From the NCBI GenBank assembly GCA_963717435.1, contig OY970332.1, positions 160,001 to 224,000 on the forward strand: 64,000 nt of DNA, read 5' to 3'. The DNA is from an uncultured bacterium (GTDB taxonomy: Bacteria > Babelota > Babeliae > Babelales > Babelaceae). The translations under genes and the position numbers were made by a program. The notes beneath the pieces are model-generated. The model did not search any database, had not been told where the DNA came from, and was given only the letters and a program-made list of their open reading frames with translations. Positions 19,893 to 50,101 of this stretch are shown in pieces; positions within the stretch are counted from its first letter, which is position 1, and every line of letters begins with the position of its first letter.

Positions 19893-20540
19893 ATGTTAAA
19901 AAATTTAAAAATCTTAGCGATATTAGGGCTATTATTGTCAGTAGGCAATAGTTATACTTTATCCAAAACACCCAAAAAATATGTTACTCAAATTGAAGCT
20001 CGTAAGTATGGTGTTATTTTTGACAAATATTACGAGGTAGATTCTTTGAATAAAGAATTTAGAGACCAGACGTTGAAAAAAGATTTTATTATAACAAGCC
20101 AAAACTTTGAATTGCAAAATAAAACTAAATCAAAAGTGATGGTAATTGCAGAACTATTTAATCAAAATGATGGCTCTTGCATCTTTCTAGGATCTGAGAC
20201 TATAGGGCCAAAGGCAGCCTCTAATAAGTTTAAAAACATAGTGATACGCGACGCCTTCCAAATAAAAATAGTTTATCCAGATGAAAAGGGCAATATAGAA
20301 ATAACACGCAAAAATAATGGCTGTGCTGAAACTGATTCTCCTAAAGCAATTTTTGCAATCAACACAAAGTCTGACAAAAAAGATATAAAGACATTTTATT
20401 TTACATTAAAGGGCGATGATTTAACGACAATCAGCTTAAAGCCGGAAACGGGCCAATTAAACGGTCTATCTGGCATAACTGAGTCTGGTCTATATCTTGG
20501 AGATAACGTAGAACAAAGTAATATAAAGAGAGAGCGGTAA
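19893..20540 (+). CDS. Secreted protein, 'PxTGQLG...TE(S/T)GL' family, member 1
   Basis: Signal peptide; QNFELQNK; LKPETGQL...TESGL. Confidence 0.85.
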   Translation: MLKNLKILAILGLLLSVGNSYTLSKTPKKYVTQIEARKYGVIFDKYYEVDSLNKEFRDQTLKKDFIITSQNFELQNKTKSKVMVIAELFNQNDGSCIFLGSETIGPKAASNKFKNIVIRDAFQIKIVYPDEKGNIEITRKNNGCAETDSPKAIFAINTKSDKKDIKTFYFTLKGDDLTTISLKPETGQLNGLSGITESGLYLGDNVEQSNIKRER

Positions 20541-20569
20541 TAATAAAAAATAAAAAAAGTGGAGAATTT

Positions 20570-21328
20570 ATGTTAAAAAATTTAAAAATCTTATCGATAT
20601 TAGGGTTATTATTGTCAGTCGGCAATAGTTATACCTGGTCCAAAACTTTACTAAAAACACCCAAAAAATATGTTACTGCAACTGAAGCTCGTAATTATGG
20701 CTACACGGATGATTATAACTCACTAGATTCTGCGAATAGAGAATTTACTGACACCAAGCTGAATAAAAAGTTTATTATGACCAATCAAAACTTTGAATTG
20801 CGCAACAAAACTAAATCAAAAATAATGGTAATTGCAGAAATATACAATTCAATTACCGGTTGTAAGTTTTTAGGCCTTGAAAAAATTGAACCGGGCAAAG
20901 CCTCTGAGACATTCACAAACATAGAAATACCTGAACAACATATGTCGCCTGCAGATAGATTGCAGATAAAAATAATTTATGCAGATAAAAACAAATCCCT
21001 GCCTACCTATGAAGCCAATTATGGTAATCACTGCGCCAAAAACATGGCGCTCGACCGAACAGTTGGTTTTTTAATAGCAAATCCACAATTTAAAGATGGC
21101 AGCCCAAAAGGGACATTTTATTTAACATTGGATGGAGATTCTGTACAAAGTAGCAATTTAAGACCCCAAACAGGACAATTAGGTAAATTTATGGGGATAG
21201 AAACGGGTCTAGCGTCAAAGACTGAGACTGGTCTTTACATAGGAAACAATATATTAAAAGGAAGCATATCTAAACAAGGAACTATAATTTCCACAAATCC
21301 ATTTATAAAAACAAATATACAGTATTAA
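20570..21328 (+). CDS. Same family, member 2
   Basis: Near-identical signal to member 1; QNFELRNK; LRPQTGQLG...KTETGL. Confidence 0.85.
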   Translation: MLKNLKILSILGLLLSVGNSYTWSKTLLKTPKKYVTATEARNYGYTDDYNSLDSANREFTDTKLNKKFIMTNQNFELRNKTKSKIMVIAEIYNSITGCKFLGLEKIEPGKASETFTNIEIPEQHMSPADRLQIKIIYADKNKSLPTYEANYGNHCAKNMALDRTVGFLIANPQFKDGSPKGTFYLTLDGDSVQSSNLRPQTGQLGKFMGIETGLASKTETGLYIGNNILKGSISKQGTIISTNPFIKTNIQY

Positions 21329-21353
21329 TCTTAAATTAAAAAAAGGAGAGTTT

Positions 21354-22304
21354 ATGAAGAAAAATTTACAAATCTTATCAATGTTGGGGTTATTATTGTC
21401 AGTAGGCAATAGCTACACTCTATCCAAAACTTATCTTGGAGTAACAGAAGTTTATGTACCAACCACGGAAAGAGATGATTTGGGACTAAGGGTTGGTGAC
21501 TTTTATAAATATGACTACTTTAATGAGATGGATAAGATAAACAAGACATATGAAGCTAAGATAGAAAACGCAAAGGTGGCTGATAAGAAAAAACTGGAGC
21601 AAGAACAAACTGCAGCCTTAGAAAAGCTTAAACAATCATCTAAAGTAGATGAATTAACTACTCTCAACAAAGTTACAACAATCATGATTAGCGACAAAAA
21701 TTTCGAAATTTTTAACAAATCAAAAGGCCCTATTACCATAGCTTTACAATATATAGAGCCTAACGCACAAAGTGGACCTTTATTAAAAATCAATCCTAAT
21801 AGTACGGCTGATAAATATACGCAAGTCATAAATCCTGGAAAGGAAAACCAGTTCCAATACACAGACGTATTGCCAATATATCCAGCAAACAAAGATGCGA
21901 AGTTGAGATTATATATTTGGGATAAGTCGGTAAAAGTCGAAAAAGAGGAATCAACGGTAGATTGGGCCAAGAAAGGACTTATCAATCTGGGAGCAAAACT
22001 AATCGGCGATGAATACAAAAAACCCACTTCCTACAAAATAAAAAATCCACAATATATATATGAATTTAGAGATCTATATACTTTAAATCGGTTTAATATG
22101 ATAGAACCAGTTGCAAACAAAGACAAAAAACCTATATTAACACTTTTGTTGACATGGGACGGAAAAGAAAAGAATCCTCTAAGGCCTGAAACTGGGCAAC
22201 TGGGACCACTACAGTCGCTTGGAATTCCTAAGAAAACTGAATCTGGTTTGAGTTCCGAATTCAATCTCGAGGCAAAGAACATAGTTCAAGTGACGGCCAA
22301 GTAA
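21354..22304 (+). CDS. Same family, member 3
   Basis: NFEIFNKSKGPITIALQY; LTWD; LRPETGQLG...KTESGL. Confidence 0.85.
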   Translation: MKKNLQILSMLGLLLSVGNSYTLSKTYLGVTEVYVPTTERDDLGLRVGDFYKYDYFNEMDKINKTYEAKIENAKVADKKKLEQEQTAALEKLKQSSKVDELTTLNKVTTIMISDKNFEIFNKSKGPITIALQYIEPNAQSGPLLKINPNSTADKYTQVINPGKENQFQYTDVLPIYPANKDAKLRLYIWDKSVKVEKEESTVDWAKKGLINLGAKLIGDEYKKPTSYKIKNPQYIYEFRDLYTLNRFNMIEPVANKDKKPILTLLLTWDGKEKNPLRPETGQLGPLQSLGIPKKTESGLSSEFNLEAKNIVQVTAK

Positions 22305-22324
22305 TAAGTTTATTTAAAAATTTG

Positions 22325-22356
22325 GGGCCGGAGGTAAAACTCCGGTCTATTTTTTG
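22325..22356 (+). terminator. Intrinsic terminator of operon 1
   Basis: gggccggag-gtaaaa-ctccggtct followed by a T-run; near-identical copy at 25238. Confidence 0.8.
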
Positions 22357-22387
22357 CAGATTTTTTTCACCGGCCCGAAATCTATTA

Positions 22388-22490
22388 TTTCAGATAGAAA
22401 AATCTATTGCATTTCGTCCATAAAATACTTTACTCTATAAATAAGGGGAAGATTGACTTCGATTATATTATTTAAAAAAGGGCAGAAGTT
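22388..22490 (+). promoter_or_regulatory. Promoter/leader block of paralog operon 2
   Basis: Duplicate of 19790-19892. Confidence 0.75.
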
Positions 22491-23273
22491 ATGTTAAAAA
22501 AGCTAAAAATATTATCGATACTGGGGTTATTATTTATCTCTAATGCTTTTTCTATAAGCAAAAACATACTCGACACACCAAAACTATATCTCCCGGGTGG
22601 CATCGCAAATTTAAGCTCGATCGATCTTAAAGATTATGAAAGTAAAAAATATGACACTTCGAAGGATCCTGCTAAAAATGCGATAGATAAAATGGGGTTA
22701 AAAGATCGCCCGAGTAAGGTGATATTTACGGAGCAAAATTTTGAAGTCTTCAACAAAACAGATAAGTCCATAACGATAGCTTTACAGCTTTCAATACAAA
22801 ATTCGCTCCACGCATCGGGGGAAATTTATTCCAACCCGACATTTGAAATTATCTCACCTAAAAAGCAATCTACTGTAATCCGAAATCTTCAAACCACAAT
22901 CGATGATATGCCTGAAATTAATAAACTTAGCCGTTCTAAGAGATCTTTAACACTATATATTTGGCCAAATAAATCTGCATACAAAGAACAAAGAGATGGA
23001 AAAATTCTAAATCTTTCACAAAATCCTGGCTTGGTCTACGTTTATAAATTTAAAGATTTGGAAAAATTTAACAAAAAGAATAACCCTAAATATACAATGT
23101 ATTTAACATTTGACGGCAAAATAAATGATAAAAAAGGTGATATTGGTCTAAGGCCACAAACTGGTCAATTAGGTAAAATTTTTGGAAAAGAAACGGGACT
23201 AGCATCAAAGACTGAAACTGGTTTATCTCTGGTAACTAATATTGATAAAAATGACATAGAGCAATTTAAATAG
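22491..23273 (+). CDS. Same family, member 4
   Basis: QNFEVFNKTDK; LTFDG; LRPQTGQLG...KTETGL. Confidence 0.85.
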   Translation: MLKKLKILSILGLLFISNAFSISKNILDTPKLYLPGGIANLSSIDLKDYESKKYDTSKDPAKNAIDKMGLKDRPSKVIFTEQNFEVFNKTDKSITIALQLSIQNSLHASGEIYSNPTFEIISPKKQSTVIRNLQTTIDDMPEINKLSRSKRSLTLYIWPNKSAYKEQRDGKILNLSQNPGLVYVYKFKDLEKFNKKNNPKYTMYLTFDGKINDKKGDIGLRPQTGQLGKIFGKETGLASKTETGLSLVTNIDKNDIEQFK

Positions 23274-23293
23274 TCTAACAAAGCGGTAGATAT

Positions 23294-24142
23294 ATGTTAA
23301 AAAATATAAAATTATTGTCGATAGTGGGATTATTATTATTTATCTCCAATGTTTTTTGTATAAGCAAAACCATATTTGACACACCCAAATTATATTTCCC
23401 AACTGTCATCAAAGATGCTTACACCAATATTAATTACACAGATAAATATGATACCTCAAAGGGTATTGCTGAGCAGGCAATAGAGACAATGGGGCTAAAA
23501 GATTATCCGAGAAAAGTGATATTTACAAATCAAAATTTTGAAATATTCAACAAAACAGATAAGCCCATAACGATAGCTTTACAGTATTCACGAATAAATC
23601 CAGTGCCTAACAAGTCTATTTTTTCCAAACCGATTTTTGAAATTATACAAGCTAAAACACAATCTACTGTGATCAAAAATCTGCAATATGGTGGCGTAAT
23701 TGACACCGAAATTAATGGAACTGGCTCAGGAACATTAACTTTATATATTTGGCCCAATAAATCCACCTACATCGCTCAAAAAAGTGAGAAAATGCTAGAC
23801 GTTTCAAATACTGGCCCGGTTTATGTTTATACATTTAATAACCTACAAAGACTTAAAAAAATTCTGAAAGATGGTGACTATTACTTCGAAGGCAACCCCA
23901 AATATACAATCTACGTAACATTTGACGGCAAAATCGATGAGGACAAAGGCGATATTGGACTAAGACCACAAACTGGTCAATTAGGTAAATTAGGTAAAAT
24001 TTTTGGAAAAGAAACGGGACTAGCATCAAAGACTGAAACTGGATTATCTCTGGTAACCAATATTGATAAGGGTGATATAAAATTAACCAGAATTGAAAAT
24101 CAAAAGCGAAAAACAGAAGCAGAAATACTAGAACAGAAGTAA
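23294..24142 (+). CDS. Same family, member 5
   Basis: Close paralog of member 4; QNFEIFNKTDK; LRPQTGQLGKLGK. Confidence 0.85.
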   Translation: MLKNIKLLSIVGLLLFISNVFCISKTIFDTPKLYFPTVIKDAYTNINYTDKYDTSKGIAEQAIETMGLKDYPRKVIFTNQNFEIFNKTDKPITIALQYSRINPVPNKSIFSKPIFEIIQAKTQSTVIKNLQYGGVIDTEINGTGSGTLTLYIWPNKSTYIAQKSEKMLDVSNTGPVYVYTFNNLQRLKKILKDGDYYFEGNPKYTIYVTFDGKIDEDKGDIGLRPQTGQLGKLGKIFGKETGLASKTETGLSLVTNIDKGDIKLTRIENQKRKTEAEILEQK

Positions 24143-24213
24143 TTTGTATATCTGTAGAGAGGTACGATTTATAAAGGGTTTAATTAAAATAATTTTTAAA
24201 AAACGGGGAGTTT

Positions 24214-25206
24214 ATGTTTAAAAATCTAAAAATATTTTCGATAGTGAGTTTATTGCTGGGCCTCTTGGGATTAGCTGATATCTATTCTATTAGTTCAACA
24301 CTAGTAGAGCCTGTGAGGTTATATTTACCCAAAGCAGAAAGAGAAAGAAAAAAGGTTAAAGTTAATGAAAATCTCCAAACGGACGAATATTTCTATGAGA
24401 CAGATCTAAGCCTATCTCAACTCCTAAAGGGAACTGATAAAAAAGCCAAAGTCACCTTTGATACTATTACATACAAACCAACAAAAAGCCCCAAACCTTG
24501 GGACGTTGAAATTACCAATCAAAACTTTGAAATATTTAATAAATCAAATGGACCTATAACATTTGCTCTGCAATATAGCGATAAGGGACCAGGTGGCAGA
24601 TCATTCTTAGGCGAGCCTTATGTAGAAAGAGTCTTAAAGGGCAAGGCATCTAAAAACATTGAAACTGCGCAGGGCGATGCAAACTTCTTAGAAAACATCA
24701 GTCAATTATATCACAGAGATCAGGGACAAGATAATCCGAAAATACTGCTTCCAACTGAGCGTCAAATACTGCTTCCAACTGAGCATCTTTGTTTATATAT
24801 CTATAAAGGGGAATTTGAAATCCAAACAGAAAGAGATGTGATGGTTGGAAAGGGGGACGCACAAAATCCTAACAGAATCGTAAGTGATCCGTATCGTGTT
24901 TATGAATTTAAAATTCCAGTACTTAAGAATAGCAAAGGCAATCCTATAACAACAATTTATTTAACATGGGACGATAAGGCAAACAAAAAAACATACTCGA
25001 CTGGATTAAAACCCGAAACTGGTCAATTAGGTAAAATTTTGGGGATAGAAACCGGTCTGGCATTTAAAACTGAATCAGGTTTGTCGATTATAACTAATTT
25101 GGATCAGGCCAATATAATAGACATTACACAAAAGGTTAAGAAAGAATTAGGAAACGATGCGGTAGCTCCGAAACCATATGTTAGGAAAAAAAAGAAGACA
25201 GAATAA
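24214..25206 (+). CDS. Same family, member 6
   Basis: QNFEIFNKSNGPITFALQY; LTWD; LKPETGQLG...KTESGL; basic tail RKKKK. Confidence 0.85.
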   Translation: MFKNLKIFSIVSLLLGLLGLADIYSISSTLVEPVRLYLPKAERERKKVKVNENLQTDEYFYETDLSLSQLLKGTDKKAKVTFDTITYKPTKSPKPWDVEITNQNFEIFNKSNGPITFALQYSDKGPGGRSFLGEPYVERVLKGKASKNIETAQGDANFLENISQLYHRDQGQDNPKILLPTERQILLPTEHLCLYIYKGEFEIQTERDVMVGKGDAQNPNRIVSDPYRVYEFKIPVLKNSKGNPITTIYLTWDDKANKKTYSTGLKPETGQLGKILGIETGLAFKTESGLSIITNLDQANIIDITQKVKKELGNDAVAPKPYVRKKKKTE

Positions 25207-28688: not shown

Positions 28689-29357
28689 ATGAAAAACAGA
28701 TTTTTCTTCCTGCCGTTTTTTTTTACCCTAACGACTATTAATATTTTTTCTAATATTTCTAATAATAAAGAGCTGATTCTAAAATTAAATAAAATAGGCG
28801 CGATAAAGTTTGAAAACGTAACACTTGAGGGAGGCATAGTCTCCCCATTTTATTTTGATATGAGGCTTATAATTTCTTATCCAGACGTGTTAATAAACTT
28901 TGCAGACGCGATAAAAGGAAAAATGGAAAATATAAACTGCGATGTGATTTGTGGCGTGCCTTATGCCGCTGTTCCTGTTGCAACTTTGGCTTGTGCGAAC
29001 ACAAAGACGCCCATGATCATGCAACGGAAAGAGCCCAAATCCCATGGCACAAAAAAGATGCTTGAGGGGAACTTTAAAAAACAGGATAAGTGCTTGATAA
29101 TCGAAGATGTGATTGTAACCGGAAACAGTATTAAAAAAAGTGCAGTAATATTAGAAGATCATGATTTGATTGCACGCGATGTTATTATTCTGATTGATAG
29201 AGAACAGGGGGGCGTTCAGCGCCTTGAAAAAGAGGGGTTTAGGGTTCATACGATATTGCAGCTATCAGAAGTGATTCAGGTTTTACTTGAAGAAAAATTA
29301 ATCACACAGGCACAAGTGGATATTGTTAGAGATTTTTGCGCAAACAATAGAGTTTGA
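28689..29357 (+). CDS. pyrE: Orotate phosphoribosyltransferase with a signal-peptide-like N-terminal extension
   Basis: SPFYFDMR, GVPYAAVP, RKEPKSHGT, LIIEDVIVTG (PRPP loop), IDREQGG. Confidence 0.88.
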   Translation: MKNRFFFLPFFFTLTTINIFSNISNNKELILKLNKIGAIKFENVTLEGGIVSPFYFDMRLIISYPDVLINFADAIKGKMENINCDVICGVPYAAVPVATLACANTKTPMIMQRKEPKSHGTKKMLEGNFKKQDKCLIIEDVIVTGNSIKKSAVILEDHDLIARDVIILIDREQGGVQRLEKEGFRVHTILQLSEVIQVLLEEKLITQAQVDIVRDFCANNRV

Positions 29358-29380
29358 GTCTAAAAAACTGGAGATGAGTT

Positions 29381-31108
29381 ATGAAGAAAAATCTAATCTT
29401 AATAGCTGTATTTATAAATATAATTTTTATAAATACAGCTAATTCTAAAAGCTTAAATTATAACATTTTTGGATATGCGATTAATTCTCCAATAGGGGTT
29501 GCTGCATGCCCGATAACAACAAGTAAGGGTATAAAATCTATATCAAAAATGGGTTATGATATTATAACTTATAAGACAATTAGAAGCTGCGAACAACAGT
29601 GTCATAAGGCTCCTAATATTTTTTTTGTAGACTGCAAAAGAAAAATTAGGAGATCTGATATTTGTGGAAAATTTTGTGCAGTTGGCGAACATGAACCAAC
29701 TGATCTGATAAAAAGAGATAATAGTGATAGTTGCTCTGACGAATTTTTAGATAATTTAACAATTACTAATTCTTTTGGGATAAGTTCTCAAGATCCAGAA
29801 GAAACAATTAGGGACATAAAATTAAGCAGAGAAATGCTTCAAGATGGCCAGGTCTTAATAGTATCTGTTTATGGTTCAGGAAATACATCCTCCTGCGCTA
29901 AAGCTCCGGAGGACAGGAAAGAACAGATAGATGACTTTGTAAAAACAGCAAAAATAGCTGTTGCAGGTGGCGCCCAGATTATCGAAGCTAATTTATCCTG
30001 CCCCAATATTGCGGACAATCAAAAACTTATATACCAGGACCCAATATTGGTCCATGACATTTGCAGAGCCATAAATCAAGAGATCCCCGAGATTCCGTTA
30101 ATTGTAAAAATTGGTTTGTGTGAAAATTTAGATATCATGAAAGATATTTTTGTCGCTGCACATAACGGCGGAGCTAAGGGAATATGTGGAATAAATACTG
30201 TGCCTGTCAGTGTTGTTGACGAATTGGAAAGACCAGTATTTGATGAACAAAGAAAGATGAGCGGACTATCAGGTTCTGCCATATTTGATTTAACTTTAGA
30301 ATTTGTAAAAAATGCAAAAAAAATAATTAAAGAAGAAAAATTAGATCTAAAATTATTTGCAACTGGAGGCGTCACAAGATGGCAGCAGTTTGATATCTTA
30401 CTTGCTGCAGGCGCAGATATTGTGCAGTGCGCAACTGGTGCGATGTGGAACAAAACTCTTGCGTTAGATTATCATAGTAATCATAGTTCAAAAAATTGTG
30501 ACCCAGAAAAAGTGGATCTGATTAAAACACTTTTTGGTATCGAAGCAATAAAAATTAAAGATATACAAATAAAAAGTGGCGCAATATCACCGATATATTT
30601 TGATATGAGATTAATTATCTCATACCCAGAAGTTTTAAAGCATATTGCGATAGAACTTAAAAAATTATTATCAAAATATAAGTTCGATATCGTCTGTGGG
30701 GTGCCATACGCTGCTGTGCCGCTAGCAACCAGCGTCTCTTTGCTTGGCAAATATTCTATGATCATGCATAGAAAAGAGGTAAAATCTTACGGCACCAAAA
30801 AAACTATAGAAGGCAATTATTCACAAGATAATATTTGCGCCGTAATTGAAGATGTAATTACAACAGGTTCCAGTATTTTAGAAACAGTAAAAGTTTTAGA
30901 AAATAATGGCTTAATTATTAATGATATTTTTGTACTTATCGATCGAGAACAGAACGGCGTTGAAAATGTTCAAAAACATGGCTACAAAGTTCACCCATTA
31001 TTTACGATCACCGAGATACTACAAGTTTTACTTGCCGAAAAACTTATCACTCATAACCAGTTTGCTACAATCAAACAGTTTTGCCTGGATAACAAAATTA
31101 ACATATAA
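29381..31108 (+). CDS. Class 1 dihydroorotate dehydrogenase-like domain fused to an OPRT domain, with a signal-peptide-like N-terminus
   Basis: PIGVAA, YKT, EANLSCPN (catalytic Cys), INT, GLSG, TGGV; C-terminal KSG..SPIYFDMR...IEDVITTG. Confidence 0.85.
   Translation: MKKNLILIAVFINIIFINTANSKSLNYNIFGYAINSPIGVAACPITTSKGIKSISKMGYDIITYKTIRSCEQQCHKAPNIFFVDCKRKIRRSDICGKFCAVGEHEPTDLIKRDNSDSCSDEFLDNLTITNSFGISSQDPEETIRDIKLSREMLQDGQVLIVSVYGSGNTSSCAKAPEDRKEQIDDFVKTAKIAVAGGAQIIEANLSCPNIADNQKLIYQDPILVHDICRAINQEIPEIPLIVKIGLCENLDIMKDIFVAAHNGGAKGICGINTVPVSVVDELERPVFDEQRKMSGLSGSAIFDLTLEFVKNAKKIIKEEKLDLKLFATGGVTRWQQFDILLAAGADIVQCATGAMWNKTLALDYHSNHSSKNCDPEKVDLIKTLFGIEAIKIKDIQIKSGAISPIYFDMRLIISYPEVLKHIAIELKKLLSKYKFDIVCGVPYAAVPLATSVSLLGKYSMIMHRKEVKSYGTKKTIEGNYSQDNICAVIEDVITTGSSILETVKVLENNGLIINDIFVLIDREQNGVENVQKHGYKVHPLFTITEILQVLLAEKLITHNQFATIKQFCLDNKINI
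29888..29913 (-). repeat. In-frame palindromic insertion inside the DHODH gene
   Basis: Minus strand tcctcc gga gct tt agc gca ggagga, same architecture as the core at 18185-18210. Confidence 0.7.
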
Positions 31109-31171
31109 ATAAGTAAATAGGGCCCGAGATTGGGCCCTATTGCTTTAAACACAAAAATTATTATTAAAAAT

Positions 31172-32041
31172 TTATACTGACACTTGTGTTTGTGCGTCTT
31201 CGATTTTTGTATACTCAGATTGTTCTTCAAATAAATTGGAAAGCTCCATGGCGCGGGCAAGTCGCGTTAAGCCGATACCACCACCAAATCTTTCGATCAT
31301 CTGTAAAGACAAGTATTCATCAAGTTCTTTTAGTACTCTATCTTTGCCAAATTTTGAGAATAATAAGCTACAGTACTCGCCATTTTCTATAGTAAAAAAT
31401 CTTTCGCGCATGCGGTTAATATCTGTTTCTCTTTCTGCTGACCCAATAGTCTCCATGCCATGCAACAGGATATCTATTTTGCTATAAACGCCATCCCCTT
31501 CTGATTTCATGTTCCAAAATGGATTTGTATGCTCTGGAAATTTTTCAAGACTTATAGAACTACCATATTTTTTTGAAAGAGCAGTTTCATGTATAGCTTC
31601 AAGTATATCAGTTTCATAAGCTTGTGCGGCGCTTAAATAATCTATAGTGATTGGCAAATCGAAACCAAGAAATAGAAGAAGTTCTTCTTCAAGTTTTTTA
31701 AGTTCATCAAATGTTCCATGGGACTCAAACTCAAACATTGGAAACACTCTTTTATGACGACCCTCGATTGGGGTCGGCTCGTCGCGATAACTTGTTGTAA
31801 CACAAAATACGCCGGGCCAACTTGGATTTTTTAGCATCTCATATTCCAGCCACATCTGACCCGTCTGTGGGAGAGGGAAAACTTCGCCTCCAATACTATA
31901 CTCTGTTATGGTCTTGGGCTGCTCGCATGCTGCCAAAATCGACGTCCGTGATTGGGCCGGGACCTCTATAAAGCCCTTTTTTTCTTGAAAAAAATTACGC
32001 AACTTACGAACCATAAAGTTGTACTGTAATGTATTATTCAT
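31172..32041 (-). CDS. Class IIb (Asn/Asp) aaRS catalytic-domain-only paralog
   Basis: Motif 1 FFQEKKGFIEV, motif 2 SYRDEP...RH..FPMFEFE, ETIGSAERE, motif 3 GGGIGLTRL; no N-terminal OB anticodon-binding domain (289 aa). Confidence 0.8.
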   Translation of the reverse strand: MNNTLQYNFMVRKLRNFFQEKKGFIEVPAQSRTSILAACEQPKTITEYSIGGEVFPLPQTGQMWLEYEMLKNPSWPGVFCVTTSYRDEPTPIEGRHKRVFPMFEFESHGTFDELKKLEEELLLFLGFDLPITIDYLSAAQAYETDILEAIHETALSKKYGSSISLEKFPEHTNPFWNMKSEGDGVYSKIDILLHGMETIGSAERETDINRMRERFFTIENGEYCSLLFSKFGKDRVLKELDEYLSLQMIERFGGGIGLTRLARAMELSNLFEEQSEYTKIEDAQTQVSV

Positions 32042-40476: not shown

Positions 40477-41319
40477 ATGAACATAGAGTCAACAAAAATA
40501 TCTATTTTCCACGAGAAACAGATTCGAAAAATACTTCTTAATAACGAATGGTATTTTTCGGTAATTGATGTGTGCGCAGTCTTAGTAGAAAGCACAGACT
40601 CCGGCGCATACTGGAGAAAGCTAAAACAACGATTGGTGGCTGAAGGAAGTGAAGTCGTGACATTTTGTCACGGGTTGAAATTAACAGCACCAGATGGCAA
40701 AAAGCGTGAGACCGACTGCGCAAATACCGAAGGCATATTTCGAATTATTCAAGCTATACCGTCCCCCAAGGCAGAGCCGTTCAAACTTTGGTTGGCTAAG
40801 ATAGGTAAAGAACGCATAGAGGAAATAGAAAATCCTGAATTGGCTATGAACAGAGCTAAAAGTCTCTATGAAAAAAAAGGTTATGAAAAAGGTTGGATCG
40901 ATAAAAGAATGAGAGGCATATCGGTAAGACAAAGTTTAACTGACGAATGGGCCGAAAGAGATATTAATCGGTCTATCGATTATGCAATTTTAACTAATGA
41001 CATTATGCAGGGTGCTTTCGATTTAAAAGTTCAAGAATACAAAGACATTAAAGGTCTTGAGAGAGAGAACTTACGCGATCACATGACGGATCTTGAACTT
41101 ATCATCACGATGCTCGCAGAAGCGACAACGAACCAAATTACGCAACAAAAAGATTCAAAAGGCTTGGATAAACTAAGAGTTGATGCCAAACTTGGCGGAG
41201 CGGTTGCTGGAAGAACTCGTAAAGATATAGAGTCTCAAACTGGCAAAAAAGTTATTTCAGAAGAAAATTTTTTGCCCAACAATAAAGTTAAAAAAATAAA
41301 AAATTATGAACAGAATTAA
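40477..41319 (+). CDS. BRO-N domain protein (phage antirepressor-like)
   Basis: WYFSVIDV, YWRKLKQRL, DGKKRETD, IPSPKAEPFKLWLA, NLRDHMTDLEL. Confidence 0.9.
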   Translation: MNIESTKISIFHEKQIRKILLNNEWYFSVIDVCAVLVESTDSGAYWRKLKQRLVAEGSEVVTFCHGLKLTAPDGKKRETDCANTEGIFRIIQAIPSPKAEPFKLWLAKIGKERIEEIENPELAMNRAKSLYEKKGYEKGWIDKRMRGISVRQSLTDEWAERDINRSIDYAILTNDIMQGAFDLKVQEYKDIKGLERENLRDHMTDLELIITMLAEATTNQITQQKDSKGLDKLRVDAKLGGAVAGRTRKDIESQTGKKVISEENFLPNNKVKKIKNYEQN

Positions 41320-42205
41320 AAAACATCTTTTATTATCAATATTTTTTATTCCGCAAATTATCCTAGCAATGGACCAGAGCATGGCTCCAATGGATTTTGA
41401 TCCACGTCCTTATAAATTAGAAGCAATTAACCTACAACGTTATATATATCAACCTAAGGACGTAGATAAGAAATTCTTAAGTTTGGCTACAGATTGTGCT
41501 CCGCAAGAAATTTTAAAGATAGCTCAGGATAAAAAACAATCACAGGAAAATAGCGATTCAATTGTTAACTGTATGCTTCTTACAGGAGATACTGGTATTG
41601 GCAAATCGCTTCTTGCCAAAGCAGTTGCATTTGAAACAGGTTACGTCTTTTTGCATATTCTTCTTGGGGATATATTAAGATCTCATAGAAATGAAACTGG
41701 GTTATTGTTATATAAGATAGTAGAAAAGGCGCAAGAACAATTTGAAAAAGTTGTGATTGTTGTAGATGATATAGATATTCTTTTACGTGCCTATAATAAC
41801 AAGCATCATGATTCTGACTTTACAACCCATGTTTTATGTAAAATCTTGGAAAAAAATTCTAATAACTCAAATTTTTTATTTATAGGAACAGCATTTAATC
41901 CTGAGTTAATTTCACCTCAAATGATGCAAAAATTTGGTAAAAATATTTTTAATCTATCTGTTCCAAATGATTTAAATCGCAAGAAAATTCTTGAAAGTTA
42001 TTTAAATGGTATGGGGAAAGAGGTGGATATTAGGGTTTATCGAAACATAGATTTCCTGGTTTCTAAAACTCAAGGCTTTACTCCTAGATACTTGCAACAT
42101 CTTATTATATTAGCACGGCAGAATTCATGGAAAAGAGAAAAAGTAGATATGTATTGCTTTTATATGGCAGGTAAAAAAATGCAAGAACTTAAATCAGAAG
42201 AATAA
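41306..42205 (+). CDS. Secreted AAA ATPase-like protein with degenerate motifs
   Basis: Signal peptide; Walker A GDTGIGKS; Walker B VVVDD; no obvious Arg finger. Confidence 0.75.
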   Translation: MNRIKKHLLLSIFFIPQIILAMDQSMAPMDFDPRPYKLEAINLQRYIYQPKDVDKKFLSLATDCAPQEILKIAQDKKQSQENSDSIVNCMLLTGDTGIGKSLLAKAVAFETGYVFLHILLGDILRSHRNETGLLLYKIVEKAQEQFEKVVIVVDDIDILLRAYNNKHHDSDFTTHVLCKILEKNSNNSNFLFIGTAFNPELISPQMMQKFGKNIFNLSVPNDLNRKKILESYLNGMGKEVDIRVYRNIDFLVSKTQGFTPRYLQHLIILARQNSWKREKVDMYCFYMAGKKMQELKSEE

Positions 42206-43232: not shown

Positions 43233-43769
43233 ATGGAATATGCTTATTTATTTTTTCTGTCGATATTAACAGGATCAATTTATTCTATGAAGCAAGATGG
43301 ACCTACAAGAATAAGAGAGATAACTGGATTTGAAATGGATCGTGAACTAATAACAGTTGATAGAGTAATTGTAAAAATTAATTATTTTGTTGAAAATAAT
43401 AATTATGATGAGGCTCAAAGATGGTTTTCTAGATTGGAACTATTGGCTTCAGCAGATTGGAAATGTTTTGATATTGACCAAATAGAAAAATATCAAGAAA
43501 TTTATTCAGAGCTTTATGATAAAGTAAATAGTATAAAGCCTAAAAATGGTCCTAAGCTGAGTGTATTTAAGCGCTTGGATCAAGAGGGTAAACTGCAACA
43601 AATAGAAAATGATTGGCTAATAGCAAAGCTAACAAACAACCAATGTGCTATTGATTGGACAGAATTGCTGGGTAAGAGCAAAAACACAGTGCCGTCTCCC
43701 AAAACATTAAGAAAAAATCGCATTGAAAGTCTTGTTGGAACTGGGCAAATAAAAGAGATGGATAAATAA
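43233..43769 (+). CDS. Hypothetical exported protein
   Basis: GGAG RBS, signal peptide. Confidence 0.65.
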   Translation: MEYAYLFFLSILTGSIYSMKQDGPTRIREITGFEMDRELITVDRVIVKINYFVENNNYDEAQRWFSRLELLASADWKCFDIDQIEKYQEIYSELYDKVNSIKPKNGPKLSVFKRLDQEGKLQQIENDWLIAKLTNNQCAIDWTELLGKSKNTVPSPKTLRKNRIESLVGTGQIKEMDK

Positions 43770-43856
43770 TTCTAAAATACTAATCATTTTGTTATTGTAA
43801 ACTAAACTGCCATACCAACTTTAATGTTAGTACGGCAGTTTATGTAACGTTTCAAT

Positions 43857-44174
43857 TTATTTTGTCTCTAGATAATCAGGCGATGCGTAATTGTCACGCG
43901 GCTCAATAGTATATTTAGTAGTATCATATTTAGTAGTTGAAGTAGTAATTACAATATCTTTTGAACATTTTTTACACGTTACAACATATTGTAAATCTGG
44001 ATAAATATTAGCTTTCATTTTATGGTTGCAATTAGGACAGCTTATATCCACGCATGAGACTTTTTCAGCTTGTTTTTGTTCTTGCTTTTCTTCTTTCTTA
44101 TCTTTCTTTACCGCAGATACAAAAGATGGCATAACAGCAAGTGTTGCTATTAATATTAGTATAGTTTTTTTCAC
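43857..44174 (-). CDS. Small secreted Zn-ribbon protein 1
   Basis: Signal, Lys/Glu linker, CPNC...CKKC. Confidence 0.75.
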   Translation of the reverse strand: MKKTILILIATLAVMPSFVSAVKKDKKEEKQEQKQAEKVSCVDISCPNCNHKMKANIYPDLQYVVTCKKCSKDIVITTSTTKYDTTKYTIEPRDNYASPDYLETK

Positions 44175-44221
44175 AATATTTCTTTCAAAACATGTTGTTA
44201 TTTAATCTGTTGTTTCTAAAC

Positions 44222-44536
44222 TTAAGTTACAGTTACTTCACCATCAAAAGAGATGCTAATGTAAAAATAACGCTTGCAGCCTTTGCATTTTAGAGAACCA
44301 GAATGAGTAATTCCAGGCGCAGATAATGTCTCATTTGGTAAATCATATGAAAAAGTATTTTTGCAACGCGGACATTGAATTGGGAACGCACTATAGTTTA
44401 CAGATTGTCCAGAAGACTCGTAAGTCTCGCTTTCTCTTTCCTTTGACTCTTTCTTAGAATTGCCCCGTTTTCCAGCAATTAAAAGTAAAGGCATGAAAAC
44501 AAGTGATGCGATTAGTAGTCTGTTTGTTTTTTTCAT
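44222..44536 (-). CDS. Small secreted Zn-ribbon protein 2
   Basis: Signal, basic linker, CPRC...CKGC. Confidence 0.75.
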   Translation of the reverse strand: MKKTNRLLIASLVFMPLLLIAGKRGNSKKESKERESETYESSGQSVNYSAFPIQCPRCKNTFSYDLPNETLSAPGITHSGSLKCKGCKRYFYISISFDGEVTVT

Positions 44537-44559
44537 AAATGTTATCACGTGTAATTTTA

Positions 44560-44859
44560 TTACGGAACTGCGACAATTCTAGGATTACCTAGCCCAACAA
44601 ATCTAGTATCCAAGATATATTTTCTTTCACAAGCCTCACATTTATGTGTGGTCAATCCTTGAACAGTAGGACATGGTATTATACGCTCAGTAGAGCAGTG
44701 TGGGCATATCATTGTGTAAGTAACAGCCACCGATGGTTGATACTCTCTTGTCTGTTCAATTTCTTCACGTTTATTATCTTTATTTTTGCCTTTTCCTGCA
44801 TTAACTAATGTTGGAGCCGCAAAAAGCATTGATAAAAGCAATATTGATATTTTTTTCAT
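44560..44859 (-). CDS. Small secreted Zn-ribbon protein 3
   Basis: Signal, basic linker, CPHC...CEAC. Confidence 0.75.
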   Translation of the reverse strand: MKKISILLLSMLFAAPTLVNAGKGKNKDNKREEIEQTREYQPSVAVTYTMICPHCSTERIIPCPTVQGLTTHKCEACERKYILDTRFVGLGNPRIVAVP

Positions 44860-44894
44860 ATTTTTAGCTTTCTTAGGTTTTATTTTAGTATAAC

Positions 44895-45344
44895 TTATTT
44901 CTTTTCTTTTTTTTCTTTCTTGCTCTTCTTATTCTTCTTCTCTTTTTTTGATTCTTTAGAGTCGTCTTCCGTATTTCCGCCCTGTCTTTCTATGCTTATT
45001 ATTCTGGCATCACTAGTACTACCAACCGGAGGAATCGAGCGGCGACATTTTCTACATGGGAATGCGCATGGAGTTGGGTTTGAATCTTTGCATTCATATA
45101 TAACGGTATTAATAAAACCACAATTATCGCATTTGATTTGTGCATGACATATTTGATCCATAGGCACAATTAAATTGAATTTTTTCCATTCATCTAATCT
45201 AGGATCAAACCAATCAATTGATCTTTCTGCCCAATACGCTCTTCCACCAGCTTCATCCATTGCCATAAGAGATATTGAAACAAGATTAAAAACCATCAAT
45301 AATATTAAAAATGTTAAATTTTCTTTTATTGACAACTTTGCCAT
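44895..45344 (-). CDS. Small secreted Zn-ribbon protein 4
   Basis: Signal, CDNC...CRKC, poly-Lys tail. Confidence 0.75.
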   Translation of the reverse strand: MAKLSIKENLTFLILLMVFNLVSISLMAMDEAGGRAYWAERSIDWFDPRLDEWKKFNLIVPMDQICHAQIKCDNCGFINTVIYECKDSNPTPCAFPCRKCRRSIPPVGSTSDARIISIERQGGNTEDDSKESKKEKKNKKSKKEKKEKK

Positions 45345-45497
45345 ATATTAATTCCTGATGTGAATTTTTTGTAGAAAAATGCTGTATATAATATATATTA
45401 TATTCTGAAATAATTTAATTCTATTTAAAGATAAGTCAATAATATTTAATAAATTTTTAATAATCATAATTCAAGATTAAAAGCTAAGTTTTATCGC

Positions 45498-48400
45498 ATG
45501 CAATATCACGAACTACAGACACGACTACTGCTAAAATTATACACAAAAAAACTGATATTTAATGCTTTATTTTTATTTTTAACAGTTATTAGTCCCAGTA
45601 TTATTAATTCTATGGGCTCAAGTAATTCTAGCGGTTCTGGCTTAAATTTTGAGGGTATTTTATTACCTAATGACATTGACATTGATAAACCTATTTTAAC
45701 TATTATTAAAAACTGTCCATATTGTAAAGTTGCTAATCAAATAGCTTATAATGAGGGTGACCAACCAGATTATTATAAATGCAATAATTGCTCCAAAAGT
45801 TTTTCTTTGAAAGAATCCAAAAGTAAAAAAATAGTTGCTGCAGTTGGCGGGGCGGGCTTAATTGGTGCAAAACTATGGGAAAAATTTTCTGGAGATAGCA
45901 ATGATCCGATAGCAAATTCGGTTATAGTTCATCTAAAAGATAAAGATGCGAAAACAACCCCTATTCCATTTCATTATTTACCCGATCAGTTTAAAGAAAA
46001 AGTTCATTTATTAAAAAATGATATTGGCACCAAAAAAGTTATTATCGATTGCGCCCTGTTTGGCAATGACACTATAAAGCTAATCTCTGAGATTTTAACT
46101 TATGAGGCTGGAGCCAAATTTATAAAAAACAGTAATGTTTCTTTCTCGTTAAAAAAAATAAAAGATTTTTTGCAAGATAATAATAATAATAAGCGCGCAG
46201 TTATTGAGAAAGCACAACATTTATTAAGAGCCTTAAAGTTTTTTAAAGTTAATGACAACTTATATGATCCTATCTATAAAGAGTGTAAATCTATCACGGG
46301 TTGCAAAAAGAAAGAGCTCTTGTTTTTGCAAGAAGATTTACTTGAAGAGCTGGAAGACGAGAGTATTTATTCATTAGGGCAGGATGAAAAAAAGTATAGA
46401 GAGAATGCTCCAACGTCAGAAAGCGAAAACCATTATCAAGAGTTATTATTTAATCAATTTAATCTATCCCCTATCAATAAAAGAAAAATTGCTTTTTATT
46501 TGTTAAAAAGAAGATTGCAGCAAGATCCTTATACGCCCGTTGTTGAGCCATATGTTATAGATAATGATTCTTGGCAAGATTTAGAAATAGTTGCCGGTTC
46601 TGGTTCGACCAGAAATACTTACTTTGCCGCATCGATCGATCAAACTTATTCAGAACTAGCAAAAGTTTCATTATATTTAAAGCTATTGCAGCCCACTGAT
46701 AATATAGATGAGATTGAAAAAAACAAAAAAATTATCAAGCTGTTCTTAGATAAACCTGAACTTTTTAAAGACTTAGACCTAATTTTTAAAGAGTTTTTCA
46801 ATAAAATCGAAAATGAAAATGGAATGTTGTCTTTTTTTCATGATAGAGGGGACTACTTTAAAAACGAAGTTAGAAAGGCATCATGGCCAGAATTTCTTCC
46901 TAATAAATTTGTTCAGTGGCTAAATAGTAATGAAATAAGTGTCTCTTTTTGGAACGCAAAAGAAAAAATAAGCTTGTGGTTTACTGAGCGCGCCACAAAA
47001 CCAGTTGATTATATTCACTCAAAATTCCCTTGGTTTTCAGGTGCGGCATCAAGTGTACTTGATATTGCTTGCTATATACCCATTGGAATACTTTATCAAT
47101 TTAACCCATATAAAGCTTCTTTGAAAATCTCAGATATTATAACCAAGCAGATTGTCTATGTTTTTAATAAAGAATTCGGAACATCTTTTCCTACTACTAT
47201 TGAAACATTTTTAGAAAATGAAATATCAAAAATAGCGGGTGATTTTATTTTATGCTTAAAGGACCAAAATCATCGTAAAAGCATTGTAGGAAGAGTTGAT
47301 GTAATTAATTGTCTTTATGAAAAACTATTTATTTTGTCAAAATTTATTAATTCTGCTAATCAGGTTCACAATATTTTGAAAGAAATGCCTGAACTGCAAA
47401 ATCATTTACCTTGTTTAAAAGCTTTAGATATTTTAAATAAATCAGATATAGGCAAGCTAGATTTTCTCTTAAATGAAACTCGCGATCCAGCAAGCTTCGA
47501 GCAGTTTATGCATAAGTTGGGGAGTAATATTTTTGAAGAAAAAAATAAAGCATGGACCAAAACACATTTTGGAAGAATTATAGCAACTTATTATTTGGTA
47601 AGTGTTCATAAAGAAAAACTTTTTGATATCTATATGGCACTTTGCGAATTGGACGTCTATCTTTCAATGGTAAGATTATACAACAAACATAAAGGAACCA
47701 CTCGACCATTTTGCTTTGTTGACCCAATTGTATCTGATGAACCAGTGATTGATCTAGAGGGATTATGGAATCCTATGCTAAAATCAAAAGCAGTTTCTAA
47801 TGATATCGCACTCGGCTGTAAGCAAAATTCCAAAGATGCTATTATTACTGGCCCTAATGAAGGTGGTAAATCAACTTTATTAAGAAATATAGTGTTTGCT
47901 ATGCTTATGGTAAAAATGGGTCTTTGTCCCGCCAAAAAAGCTGTTATTACGCCATTTTCAAACATGCGTGCTTATTTAAATATAACTGATGATGCGGCCC
48001 ATGATCGTTCTCTTTTTAGAGTTAGCACAGAAAGAGCCAATGAGTTGATCAATGTGGCTGGCAATACTCATTCTAATGGACCTTCACTTGTATTATTTGA
48101 TGAATTATATAATGGCACCAAGCCATCAACAGGAGAGGGATTGGCTTATGGGACGCTTAAATATTTAAATCAGATAAAAAAATTCCCAAGAAATATTTGT
48201 ATTGCTTCAACCCATTACCCTTGTGTTGCAAAATTAAGGGCAGAACTGGATACTGATTTTGTTTATCTAAGAGTTTGCGATAAAAGCGATGGTAAAGAAA
48301 ACCGCTTTAAGGTGTTGCCGGGTATTTATAGAGACTCTAACGGATTTGAGGTTGCTGAAAGTGCAAATGTTCATCCTGAAATTTTACGTTTTTCTCGAGC

Positions 48401-48824
48401 TCATTTTGAACAGAATATTAAAGATGCATATGCAGACGCTTATAAGCTTTATTTGGGCGCATTATCACATAAAGAAATTTTTGATGATTTTATTAGCAAA
48501 CTTGATGAACATGATATAGAAGCAGTTAATTTTTTTCATAAAATTACCTTAATCCCTGTTTACTGCAAATTACTGTTTAAACAGGCAGAATCACATGGCT
48601 TTAATATTAAAAAATTAATTAATTATCAAGATGCACATGGCAGAACAATTTTGCATCACATTGCAATCAATGACATTAAAGATCAAGAATTTATCAGTTT
48701 TTTAATCGAACATGGCGCAAAAACCAATCTTAAAGATGTTAATGGTTATACCCCAGTTGATCATGCTTTATACGCAAATAGCAAAACTAAATTAGAAGAA
48801 TCTTTAAATGAATCTAGTGAGTAG
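45498..48824 (+). CDS. Large protein: signal peptide, Zn ribbon, MutS domain-V ATPase, C-terminal ankyrin repeats
   Basis: CPYC...CNNC; ITGPNEGGKST, LFDELYNGT, STHY; DAHGRTILH...LIEHGAKTNLKDVNGYTPVDHA. Confidence 0.85.
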   Translation: MQYHELQTRLLLKLYTKKLIFNALFLFLTVISPSIINSMGSSNSSGSGLNFEGILLPNDIDIDKPILTIIKNCPYCKVANQIAYNEGDQPDYYKCNNCSKSFSLKESKSKKIVAAVGGAGLIGAKLWEKFSGDSNDPIANSVIVHLKDKDAKTTPIPFHYLPDQFKEKVHLLKNDIGTKKVIIDCALFGNDTIKLISEILTYEAGAKFIKNSNVSFSLKKIKDFLQDNNNNKRAVIEKAQHLLRALKFFKVNDNLYDPIYKECKSITGCKKKELLFLQEDLLEELEDESIYSLGQDEKKYRENAPTSESENHYQELLFNQFNLSPINKRKIAFYLLKRRLQQDPYTPVVEPYVIDNDSWQDLEIVAGSGSTRNTYFAASIDQTYSELAKVSLYLKLLQPTDNIDEIEKNKKIIKLFLDKPELFKDLDLIFKEFFNKIENENGMLSFFHDRGDYFKNEVRKASWPEFLPNKFVQWLNSNEISVSFWNAKEKISLWFTERATKPVDYIHSKFPWFSGAASSVLDIACYIPIGILYQFNPYKASLKISDIITKQIVYVFNKEFGTSFPTTIETFLENEISKIAGDFILCLKDQNHRKSIVGRVDVINCLYEKLFILSKFINSANQVHNILKEMPELQNHLPCLKALDILNKSDIGKLDFLLNETRDPASFEQFMHKLGSNIFEEKNKAWTKTHFGRIIATYYLVSVHKEKLFDIYMALCELDVYLSMVRLYNKHKGTTRPFCFVDPIVSDEPVIDLEGLWNPMLKSKAVSNDIALGCKQNSKDAIITGPNEGGKSTLLRNIVFAMLMVKMGLCPAKKAVITPFSNMRAYLNITDDAAHDRSLFRVSTERANELINVAGNTHSNGPSLVLFDELYNGTKPSTGEGLAYGTLKYLNQIKKFPRNICIASTHYPCVAKLRAELDTDFVYLRVCDKSDGKENRFKVLPGIYRDSNGFEVAESANVHPEILRFSRAHFEQNIKDAYADAYKLYLGALSHKEIFDDFISKLDEHDIEAVNFFHKITLIPVYCKLLFKQAESHGFNIKKLINYQDAHGRTILHHIAINDIKDQEFISFLIEHGAKTNLKDVNGYTPVDHALYANSKTKLEESLNESSE

Positions 48825-48880
48825 TGGGCTGACAGTTAAGACAAATATTTTATTAATTATTAAAACATTAAAAGTATATT

Positions 48881-50101
48881 ATGAAATTTGTATCAAGATT
48901 TAAAGCTCTTTATTTTTTATTTATTTGCTTTATTGCCACACCAAACCTGATAGCAATGGAAAGCTCACTTGAGACTGAATCTACTGAAACTGTAGATATT
49001 GAAACCACTGACGGCCAAGAGCTTGTTTTTCAAGAGCCAATAGTTCCAAATGCTTCGTTAGAACTGGTTAAAAAAAATAGAGAAAAAATTGATAAGCAGC
49101 TATCGTTAAACTCTTGTAGAGTTGTTTTTGATATTTTTGCAATAATGCGTTTTATTGAACTTGATAATTCACTTGAGCTAGATATGACAAGCGAAGGGAA
49201 AAACCCTTTTATTAAACATAATCTCAAAAGTAAAGACGCAAAAAAGATTATCGAATTATTATTAGCATTTAATAAAGATTCTTTAATTAATAACGAAATA
49301 CTACATGCATTTATACTTTTTATAGATTCTATAGAACAAAAGAGATACTTAAAAAAAATAAATTTTAGAAAACCGGAAATCGATTTAGAATTTCTTAACA
49401 AATTGGATGATAGCCTAAAAACAACTCTTGATAAGTATAATTTTTTAAATTTCGATAAACACTTTAACCTGCCTATTGAGCTTTTGGCACACATATCCAT
49501 AGAAGAGTTAATTAAATTTAAAAAGATAAATACAAAAATTATTAAAAACAAAACTGATAATAATCTGGTACTTAAATTAAATAAATGCTCCCTGAAAACA
49601 GTTGATGGCTGGCAAGGGTTATCTAATCAGAATATTTTAGACCCCAAACTTGTGTGCTTTATTGACCTGAGTAATAATAATTTAAAACAACTTCCTGCTA
49701 ATATGCTCAAGGGATTTACTAATCTTAAAAAGCTTAATTTGGCTAATAACGAGCTTGAATCTCTGGAGCCACAATTTCTTATTGATTGCGTAAATATTAT
49801 TATTATCGACTTATCGAATAACAAATTAAAAATGCTTCCCGAAGATTTTTTATCTTACTGTAAATCTAAGCCTGAGCTTATTACAGTTAATAATCCACTC
49901 TTGGTTGATACAACAAAAACACCAAAAATTATTTTCATATCTGGGAATAATAGCAGGACTTCAAATACCCAAAACTCCTGCGAACCCGTTTTCCAACCCC
50001 GTGATGATAATGATTGGTACTGGTCCTGGATTTATGGTGCAACTACAATAGCAATTACCGTTGTTTGCGTTATCACTTATAAAATAGTTAGTAAAAAATA
50101 G
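48881..50101 (+). CDS. Secreted leucine-rich-repeat protein with C-terminal TM anchor
   Basis: IDLSNNNLKQLP, LNLANNELESL, IDLSNNKLKMLP; C-terminal hydrophobic helix. Confidence 0.85.
   Translation: MKFVSRFKALYFLFICFIATPNLIAMESSLETESTETVDIETTDGQELVFQEPIVPNASLELVKKNREKIDKQLSLNSCRVVFDIFAIMRFIELDNSLELDMTSEGKNPFIKHNLKSKDAKKIIELLLAFNKDSLINNEILHAFILFIDSIEQKRYLKKINFRKPEIDLEFLNKLDDSLKTTLDKYNFLNFDKHFNLPIELLAHISIEELIKFKKINTKIIKNKTDNNLVLKLNKCSLKTVDGWQGLSNQNILDPKLVCFIDLSNNNLKQLPANMLKGFTNLKKLNLANNELESLEPQFLIDCVNIIIIDLSNNKLKMLPEDFLSYCKSKPELITVNNPLLVDTTKTPKIIFISGNNSRTSNTQNSCEPVFQPRDDNDWYWSWIYGATTIAITVVCVITYKIVSKK

Follow-up and report, generated by a model that had tools for sequence, protein, structure and literature searches.

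A conserved Babeliales cassette joins a MutS8-type ATPase carrying a predicted Skp1-like domain to a leucine-rich-repeat protein and small putative zinc-ribbon proteins

Within a 64,000-nucleotide stretch from an uncultured bacterium of the Babeliales (TM6/Dependentiae; GenBank assembly GCA_963717435.1, contig OY970332.1, positions 160,001 to 224,000; hereafter the window, whose positions are used throughout), six genes between 43857 and 50101 form a divergent cassette. Four small minus-strand genes with putative Zn ribbons (z1 to z4) lie opposite a gene for an 1108-aa protein with a MutS-type ATPase, which is followed by a gene whose product has leucine-rich repeats (LRR). These six open reading frames (ORFs) had been proposed in a preliminary description made from the letters of the DNA, and all are found in place. 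We consider it likely that they constitute a linked, exported module directed at the host, the bacterium itself likely living inside protists as a parasite. The more specific explanation that we prefer, tentatively and at a little under an even chance, is that this conserved cassette supplies an exported, host-directed MutS8-type ATPase in a module that mimics cullin adaptors, a reading that leans on structure prediction.

The MutS protein (45498-48824, plus strand) carries, in order, a signal-peptide-like N-terminus (45498-45611, aa 1-38, ending IINS/M, the slash marking the presumed cleavage point here and below), a Zn-ribbon motif (45714-45791), a predicted Skp1/ElonginC/BTB-fold domain (45909-46307, aa 138-270), a MutS core of domains III and V with a helical insert at the clamp position (46542-48428), and about two ankyrin repeats (48606-48782, aa 1037-1095) that are retained in the closest orthologues. 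Signal peptides were judged by hydropathy together with a genome-typical cleavage motif; both the signal-peptide-like N-terminus and the Skp1-fold domain were absent from the preliminary description. The MutS-type ATPase motifs are intact, with Walker A (GPNEGGKST), N-2 (DD..DRSLF), Walker B (FDE), the H-loop (STHY) and the dimer helix-turn-helix all aligning to E. coli MutS. Pfam matches are to MutS_V (E 9e-22, aa 782-968) and, weakly, to MutS_III, and there is none at E<=0.1 to MutS_I, MutS_II or MutS_IV (PF01624, PF05188, PF05190), which bears out the initial reading of a MutS-V ATPase devoid of the mismatch-binding domain I; the place of domains I and II is occupied by the Skp1-fold domain. 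A model built from a 122-row alignment (predicted local distance difference test, pLDDT, of 85) superposes on MutS/MSH with a Z of about 30 over 420-470 residues, mainly aa 349-977, and also on MutS2. Between the halves of domain III the model has helices only, with no strands predicted, and this all-helical insert in place of a domain IV weakens the suggestion that MutS serves here as a nucleic-acid clamp; net charge is +4 for the insert and -3 for the mature protein. The ankyrin repeats are present as claimed, but there are only about two, the Ank_2 match (E 8e-6, 26.8 bits) falling just short of the Pfam cut-off of 27.3. They form the C-terminus, with no Smr nuclease domain, and the MutS2 model TIGR01069 reaches 88.8 bits against a cut-off of 400. 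The protein thus shares the folds of domains III and V and all ATPase motifs with MutS1/MSH and MutS2, but differs from them in having no domains I, II, IV or Smr, in its signal peptide, and in coming from a genome that has its own canonical MutS1 (C1:53287-55731). KamC, the ATPase that reactivates lysine 5,6-aminomutase, is another MutS-type ATPase without a mismatch domain; it acts on a protein and is not known to be exported. The present protein matches KamC (NF052383) at E 6e-20, but the 71.6 bits lie under the cut-off of 300, and no aminomutase genes were found among the neighbours scanned with Pfam.

The segment of aa 138-270 is a separate domain that occurs in one to three copies in the closest relatives, in some of them in tandem. 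Folded alone it is predicted with a pLDDT of 89.5, and the model has the BTB/POZ core fold. Of 48161 chains compared with it, the five that score highest are all Skp1 or ElonginC (Z 9.8-8.6, root-mean-square deviation (rmsd) 2.4-3.7, 86-112 residues aligned), including ASK1 (Z 9.8, rmsd 3.5, 112 aligned), yeast Skp1 (Z 9.4) and ElonginC (Z 9.3, rmsd 2.9, 96 aligned). Below these come mostly BTB domains, the viral BTB mimic vaccinia A55 (PDB 6i2m) standing at row 26. Foldseek listed 42 matches, every one a Skp1, ElonginC or BTB complex and none at E<=0.001. The protein also resembles the Skp1/ElonginC/BTB cullin adaptor systems in its company of repeat domains, since ankyrin, LRR and WD40 repeats occur in substrate receptors; it differs in being fused to an ATPase, and the likeness is a predicted one. 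A Pfam scan of the whole protein gave no Skp1 or BTB match, and scores for aa 130-300 in the ESM Atlas were all under 0.8.

The MutS family to which the protein belongs is large, with 506 clusters at E<=1e-30; at the same threshold, 165 of the phylum's 261 genomes have a match. Its nearest outside relatives are III+V proteins of about 600 aa from viral contigs, many of them giant-virus metagenome-assembled genomes (L232-L292). The family ATPase profile scores these at 176-296 bits and six plasmid MutS-V proteins at 98-148 bits, and among the top viral hits by fold is one labelled MutS subfamily 8 (by-target TM-score of 0.63, versus 0.34 for MutS7). In trees the bacterial family and the viral III+V proteins form a joint clade (support 100/98 and 96/97) that is separate from MutS1, from MutS2 and from the membrane MutS-V proteins of plasmids. 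These trees were built on subsets, 138 of 435 ATPase domains and then 58 and 40 hand-picked rows, with no named MutS8 sequence among them and with the long-branch rows L202 and L203 and a second family member of the source genome left out. The latter (C1:155011-157131, 3 kb before the window) is a 706-aa signal-peptide III+V protein on a long branch with a divergent Walker A, GPGGCGKST. That the protein does not group with the membrane-bound MutS-V proteins of Bacillota and Bacteroidota agrees with the three best trees and with an approximately unbiased test under LG+G4 (p 0.018), but not with the same test under a mixture model (p 0.134). As to the direction of transfer between bacteria and viruses, two trees place the viruses inside the bacterial family and one shows the reverse, the outcome changing with the model; neither monophyly is rejected (p 0.18 under LG+G4, p 0.25 under the mixture model).

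Both the domain content, III and V only with an intact ATPase, and the grouping with giant-virus III+V proteins point to kinship with MutS8, whose domain make-up is taken here from the InterPro domains quoted in PMC5698495. According to that paper, Cardinium CAHE_0017 and CAHE_0267 and the Amoebophilus homologs are MutS8, the Cardinium proteins having a signal peptide and being candidates for host interaction. A 2026 Cardinium preprint, in the passages searched, contains no mention of MutS. Relative to these systems, the present protein adds the Zn ribbon, the Skp1-fold domain and ankyrin repeats, and it sits in a conserved cassette. Giant-virus MutS7/8 has been suggested to guard viral genomes (PMC3749498), and some MutS subfamilies are described as uncharacterised (PMC11275761). 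A hydrophobic segment after residue 45 is present in 32 of the 34 viral-contig proteins, which questions a DNA-repair role for MutS8. MutS8 occurs widely among giant viruses, and we know of no function that has been tested for it. An N-terminal hydrophobic stretch, in turn, is found in 124 of the 150 best bacterial family representatives and in none of the 34 viral-contig or six canonical proteins, the pattern one would predict for a protein that viruses produce inside the host cytosol but that bacteria have to export. Family members have also been joined to a USP deubiquitinase (P0245, E 1e-30, 1531 aa) and to a large ankyrin array (P0118, 1844 aa), and a bacterial sister family in which MutS is combined with Skp1-like, ankyrin and deubiquitinase domains suggests a role in the control of host proteins and not in DNA repair. 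One further member, P0235 (1238 aa), has two MutS_V domains.

The LRR partner (48881-50101, plus strand, 406 aa) has a signal peptide, an N-terminal domain, three to four LRRs (LRR_8, E 9e-9), a C-terminal hydrophobic segment (aa 386-404) and a short basic tail, in agreement with its first description as a membrane-anchored LRR protein; the signal peptide and C-terminal anchor recur in all four genomes in which the MutS-LRR pairing was found. A profile of its N-terminal domain has six strong matches in the 261 genomes, all beside a gene for a Skp1-fold MutS protein, although all six are also its seeds. Aligned with the Skp1-like domain of the MutS protein it gives an HHalign probability of 46% (E 3e-5), and it may be a degenerate copy of that fold. 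It gave no match to the BTB domain encoded next to the cassette of the relative G242, described below (probability 0.2%). The N-terminal domain has no sequence match in the PDB and the protein no Pfam F-box match; its LPIELLAHI stretch may be F-box-like. In the ESM Atlas the protein falls in generic LRR clusters only.

The four small genes encode proteins of 105 aa (z1, 43857-44174), 108 aa (z2, 44222-44548, with an alternative ATG start at 44536), 99 aa (z3, 44560-44859) and 149 aa (z4, 44895-45344), all on the minus strand. Each has a signal-peptide-like start, ending A/GKRG in z2 and A/GKGK in z3, and a CxxC pair; the preliminary description was right in this, but its spacer of 15-20 residues does not hold throughout, the values being 17, 25, 18 and 21 from z1 to z4. 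Nor do the proteins have little other similarity, as had been thought: they are distant paralogs (z2-z3, E 3e-6; z1-z2, E 1e-4). The Lys-rich stretches seen in all four are in three a mixed K/E sequence, such as the charged linker of z1, and only the C-terminal tail of z4, which also has seven Cys and a DSNPTPCAF motif, is K-rich. As nuclear-localisation signals (NLS) these stretches are weak: only z4 has a K-rich tail with K[KR]x[KR] runs, and z2 and z3 are without the motif. Shuffling the residues of each small protein produces the CxxC..CxxC pattern in 0.06-0.7% of trials, and an N-terminal hydrophobic stretch with CxxC..CxxC occurs in 13 of the 1162 genome ORFs of at least 80 aa, five of which are consecutive at this locus. 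Such a run of five was seen in none of 10000 order shuffles, and the clustering is not due to chance. Zinc binding by these fast-diverging proteins is predicted from the Cys pattern, which is conserved, with a few 3-Cys variants, across 11 ribbon proteins and would also be compatible with disulfides; Pfam ribbon matches to the small proteins are sub-threshold only.

The fifth member of the run is the MutS protein, whose ribbon is present as described (CPYC-x18-CNNC). It had been called the same type as those of the small proteins, and a modest relationship is indeed seen, but it is not retained across the ATPase family: the pattern is found in two of the 150 best family representatives, one of them the query, and the orthologues in the relatives G242 and G003 are without it. 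It is the best non-seed match of an 11-row ribbon profile (19.3 bits, the next being 14.2), and has no significant match to a 4-row profile. No DNA-level similarity was found among the five ribbon genes, and aa 31-109, which include the ribbon, are modelled without confidence. This lineage-specific addition is likely a local fusion derived from a ribbon protein of the kind encoded next to it.

The closest genomic orthologues of the MutS protein are found in G242, G003, G051 and G146. In G242, which belongs to another family of the order, the divergent layout of ribbon array, MutS and LRR genes is retained, so that the expectation of synteny in relatives was borne out. Its ribbon genes on the opposite strand comprise four intact copies, most starting A/GKDK, and a fifth that is 5'-broken and has no in-frame start (L164:12115-12348); homologs of z1 (E 2e-6), z3 (E 4e-7) and z4 (E 4e-11, with DSNPTPCAF) are among them. 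Identity is 47% for MutS and 45% for LRR, compared with 70% for UvrB. Directly after the G242 LRR gene lies a third gene encoding a signal peptide, BTB, WD40 and an anchor (L164:16924-18510). G003, besides a MutS-LRR pair, has two further genes for Skp1-fold MutS proteins, with a relative of the LRR N-domain before each of these; in G051 both genes of the pair are split (L166:9266-14089), with a Cys-rich signal-peptide gene (L166:8800-9201) divergent from MutS at the position of the ribbon array. In all, an LRR-type partner is adjacent at six loci. Ribbon linkage to MutS was expected in relatives and holds for the G242 layout, but in G003 the two ribbon genes are placed among ankyrin genes downstream of a further MutS copy, at distances of 3 and 7 kb, and in G146 there are none in the 20 kb read. 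The ribbon-family and LRR N-domain profiles have no strong members elsewhere in the 261 genomes; their seeds were picked at these loci, and remote members may therefore be missed. Scans of Joint Genome Institute metagenomes gave no close orthologous locus, and the word-indexed protein searches and contig scan were dominated by MutS1/2 matches. A ribbon-profile match of G003 at C1:237471 was rejected as an unrelated C2H2 array. L039:961-1764 of G003 encodes a signal peptide followed by about eight eukaryote-type C2H2 zinc fingers.

The source genome (G000) is a single 1.198-Mb contig with 34.6% GC, encoding three TLC ATP/ADP translocases and two secretins; the type III secretion export-gate and VirB4 families had no match in it (completeness 89%). 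Cultured members of the phylum are intracellular parasites of protists with a type II system only (PMC4378268, PMC6561590), and all TM6 genomes are reported to have two gspD copies (PMC4776705). Sec signal peptides have been described there on ankyrin, LRR, ubiquitin-system and ATPase-fusion proteins (Babela massiliensis and Chromulinavorax; PMC4378268, PMC6561590), ankyrin and ubiquitin-system proteins of Babela are reportedly secreted by Sec and the type II system (PMC4378268), and in Chromulinavorax the share of genes with a signal peptide is 44% (PMC6561590). Signal-peptide-like starts are therefore common in our genome as well: 642 of 1123 ORFs pass the crude hydropathy cut, membrane proteins included, and 123 of these 642, versus 3.7% of control windows, have a small residue/M[EDQKNAG] motif, which is present in the z4, MutS and LRR proteins. 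The proteins of the cassette thus resemble the Babela and Chromulinavorax effectors, of the same phylum, in their predicted Sec signal peptides, domain types and occurrence in islands. The main text of PMC4378268 has no occurrence of MutS, BTB or zinc, and PMC6561590 has none of MutS, naming mutL/S/Y as repair genes only.

The absence of parts that grip a mismatch, the predicted export signal and Skp1-like fold, and the context of LRR and ribbon genes together suggest that the ATPase interferes with host protein turnover instead of repairing DNA. In the mechanism that we propose, its proteins would be exported by Sec and pass through one of the two secretins into the host, which offers ATP and zinc and where the MutS protein would dimerise, as all MutS proteins do, and its Skp1-like domain would dock on, or compete for, host cullin ubiquitin-ligase complexes. 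Host ATP would then power the holding or remodelling of target proteins by the ATPase, perhaps at a membrane, because a hydrophobic 19-mer (Kyte-Doolittle value of at least 1.6) is found at the clamp position in 64 of 104 short family members, although it is weak in the present protein (1.48). The LRR protein could be a membrane-anchored partner or a target-binding subunit, and the ribbon proteins accessory subunits, one ribbon having perhaps been fused onto the ATPase in this lineage. The USP and ankyrin fusions and the BTB-WD40 gene of G242 favour this explanation, and the host-targeted effector module envisaged at the outset gains from the linkage in G242, the three translocases and the ubiquitin-domain fusions, while its NLS and clamp elements do not stand up well.

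Several points weigh against a cullin-adaptor mimic. A shared fold shows no function, and BTB-type folds also just oligomerise; identity to Skp1 and ElonginC is 9-18%, and Z scores of 8.6-9.8 are slightly above a background of 7-8. The signal peptides are crude calls of a kind common in the genome, a 120-kDa multidomain protein and Cys4 ribbons would have to cross the periplasm, and the LRR protein, with its signal peptide and C-terminal anchor, would ordinarily be expected to stay in the inner membrane. Only three genomes were found to have Zn-ribbon genes, which in G003 lie at a distance, and the G146 gene is without the Skp1 domain, LRR and ribbons in the 20 kb read. We think it improbable, though worth stating, that the protein is an exported ATP-driven cullin adaptor with exchangeable LRR and ribbon target-binding subunits of which giant-virus MutS8 would be a signal-less descendant, a factor for host manipulation and not a repair enzyme.

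An unlikely alternative is a machine that stays in the bacterial envelope, in the periplasm or at the surface, where a MutS dimer would remodel envelope or membrane proteins or handle a peptide, the Skp1-like domain would only oligomerise and the real clue would be a link to lasso peptides. Lasso-peptide genes of the B (PF13471) and C (PF00733) types, with precursor-like ORFs, adjoin the family MutS gene in G242, G003 and G146. Of 18 lasso B genes in 16 of the 261 genomes, nine have a signal-peptide III+V MutS gene within about 5 kb; the other nine do not, four of these lying on short contigs or near a contig end. A naive estimate of the chance of this linkage is 3e-8, which is overstated because kin are not independent. 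The anchored LRR partner, the hydrophobic segments of the short family members and viral proteins, and KamC, a precedent for protein remodelling, fit an envelope location as well, but the source genome has neither a lasso B gene nor a precursor motif, its own hydrophobic segment is weak, and the periplasm generally has no ATP. We also know of no bacterial partners for Skp1, ankyrin and USP fusions, and of no envelope of bacterial kind in giant viruses. Lasso clusters with B, C and ABC transporter genes and ELGxxSxLTL/G precursors were seen at L164:5996-9955, L022:2282-9225, L167:5920-8904, L191, L192, L193, L199, L202 and L203, and polyprotein precursors on L196 and L201. The idea that the small proteins are themselves lasso substrates, from their mature Gly start, was rejected as unlikely, because the source genome has no B gene and the true ELGxxSxLTLG precursors adjoin B/C genes in relatives.

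About equally doubtful is a loose island of independent secreted proteins that are co-inherited in a variable region and form no single machine. Secreted eukaryote-like genes of Babela do cluster in islands (PMC4378268), and neighbours of the present genes vary, the ribbons being upstream in G000 and G242, downstream in G003 and missing from G146, and G051 having the one Cys-rich gene, at only 9.5 bits on the ribbon profile. The source genome (window 28689-32041) and G242 (L165:8009-12337) each have a pyrE/pyrD/AsnRS-like block no more than about 7-16 kb from the cassette, on opposite sides, so that the shared position of the cassette may be plain ancestry. Against independence stand the adjacency of an LRR-type partner at six loci, three of them separate in G003, the restriction of ribbon-profile members to these loci and the fusion of a ribbon to the ATPase. 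Least probable of all is a nucleic-acid clamp in the host nucleus or mitochondrion, also proposed for Cardinium MutS8, in which the dimer would encircle DNA or RNA and be brought to the nucleus by the basic small proteins: the core superposes on both MutS/MSH and MutS2, the latter of which is functional in the absence of domains I and II (PMC11275761), the long helices modelled where the clamp would be might yet complete a ring, the genome-guard suggestion for MutS7/8 would fit, and the NLS-like z4 tail is retained in G242 as RRDIKKKK, but there is no domain I or IV match, no strand in the insert and no nuclease domain, and neither the charges nor z2 and z3 suit such a role.

The divergent intergenic region (45345-45497, 153 bp, 16% GC) is AT-rich and presumably holds back-to-back promoters, although a promoter scan found 12 sites where 10.4 are expected, a chance level. 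A 40-bp inverted repeat (43803-43842; 85%, E 6e-8 by self-blastn) separates z1 from the gene at 43233-43769, with which it converges, and is likely a terminator bounding the cassette; a consensus scan did not call it. A signal-peptide AAA ATPase gene (41306-42205; Pfam AAA, E 7e-19) lies 1.6 kb from the cassette and is preceded by a tRNA-Arg and a Bro-N gene (40477-41319), an arrangement that suggests an island edge. Elsewhere in the window, six tandem signal-peptide genes (19893-25206) have near-identical leaders (MLKNLKILxILGLL). A groEL-like gene (16681-18120) appears as several fragments, and indel errors may therefore be present in this assembly; the G242 ribbon and G051 MutS and LRR genes are likewise in pieces.

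The literature already has exported proteins of MutS8 type and Babela effectors aimed at the ubiquitin system; a full-text search, subscription papers and supplements excluded, gave no report of a MutS fusion with a Skp1-like fold, of the cassette as a conserved unit or of the association with lasso peptides. The analysis brings to light an unexplained tie of the MutS family to lasso-peptide clusters, and it is relevant to the delivery of proteins that depend on ATP and Zn by Babeliales, whose means for this are limited to Sec and secretins. The cassette offers concrete baits in the 133-residue domain, the LRR partner and the small ribbon proteins, and the domain fusions of the bacterial family are the best clue to the function of MutS8.

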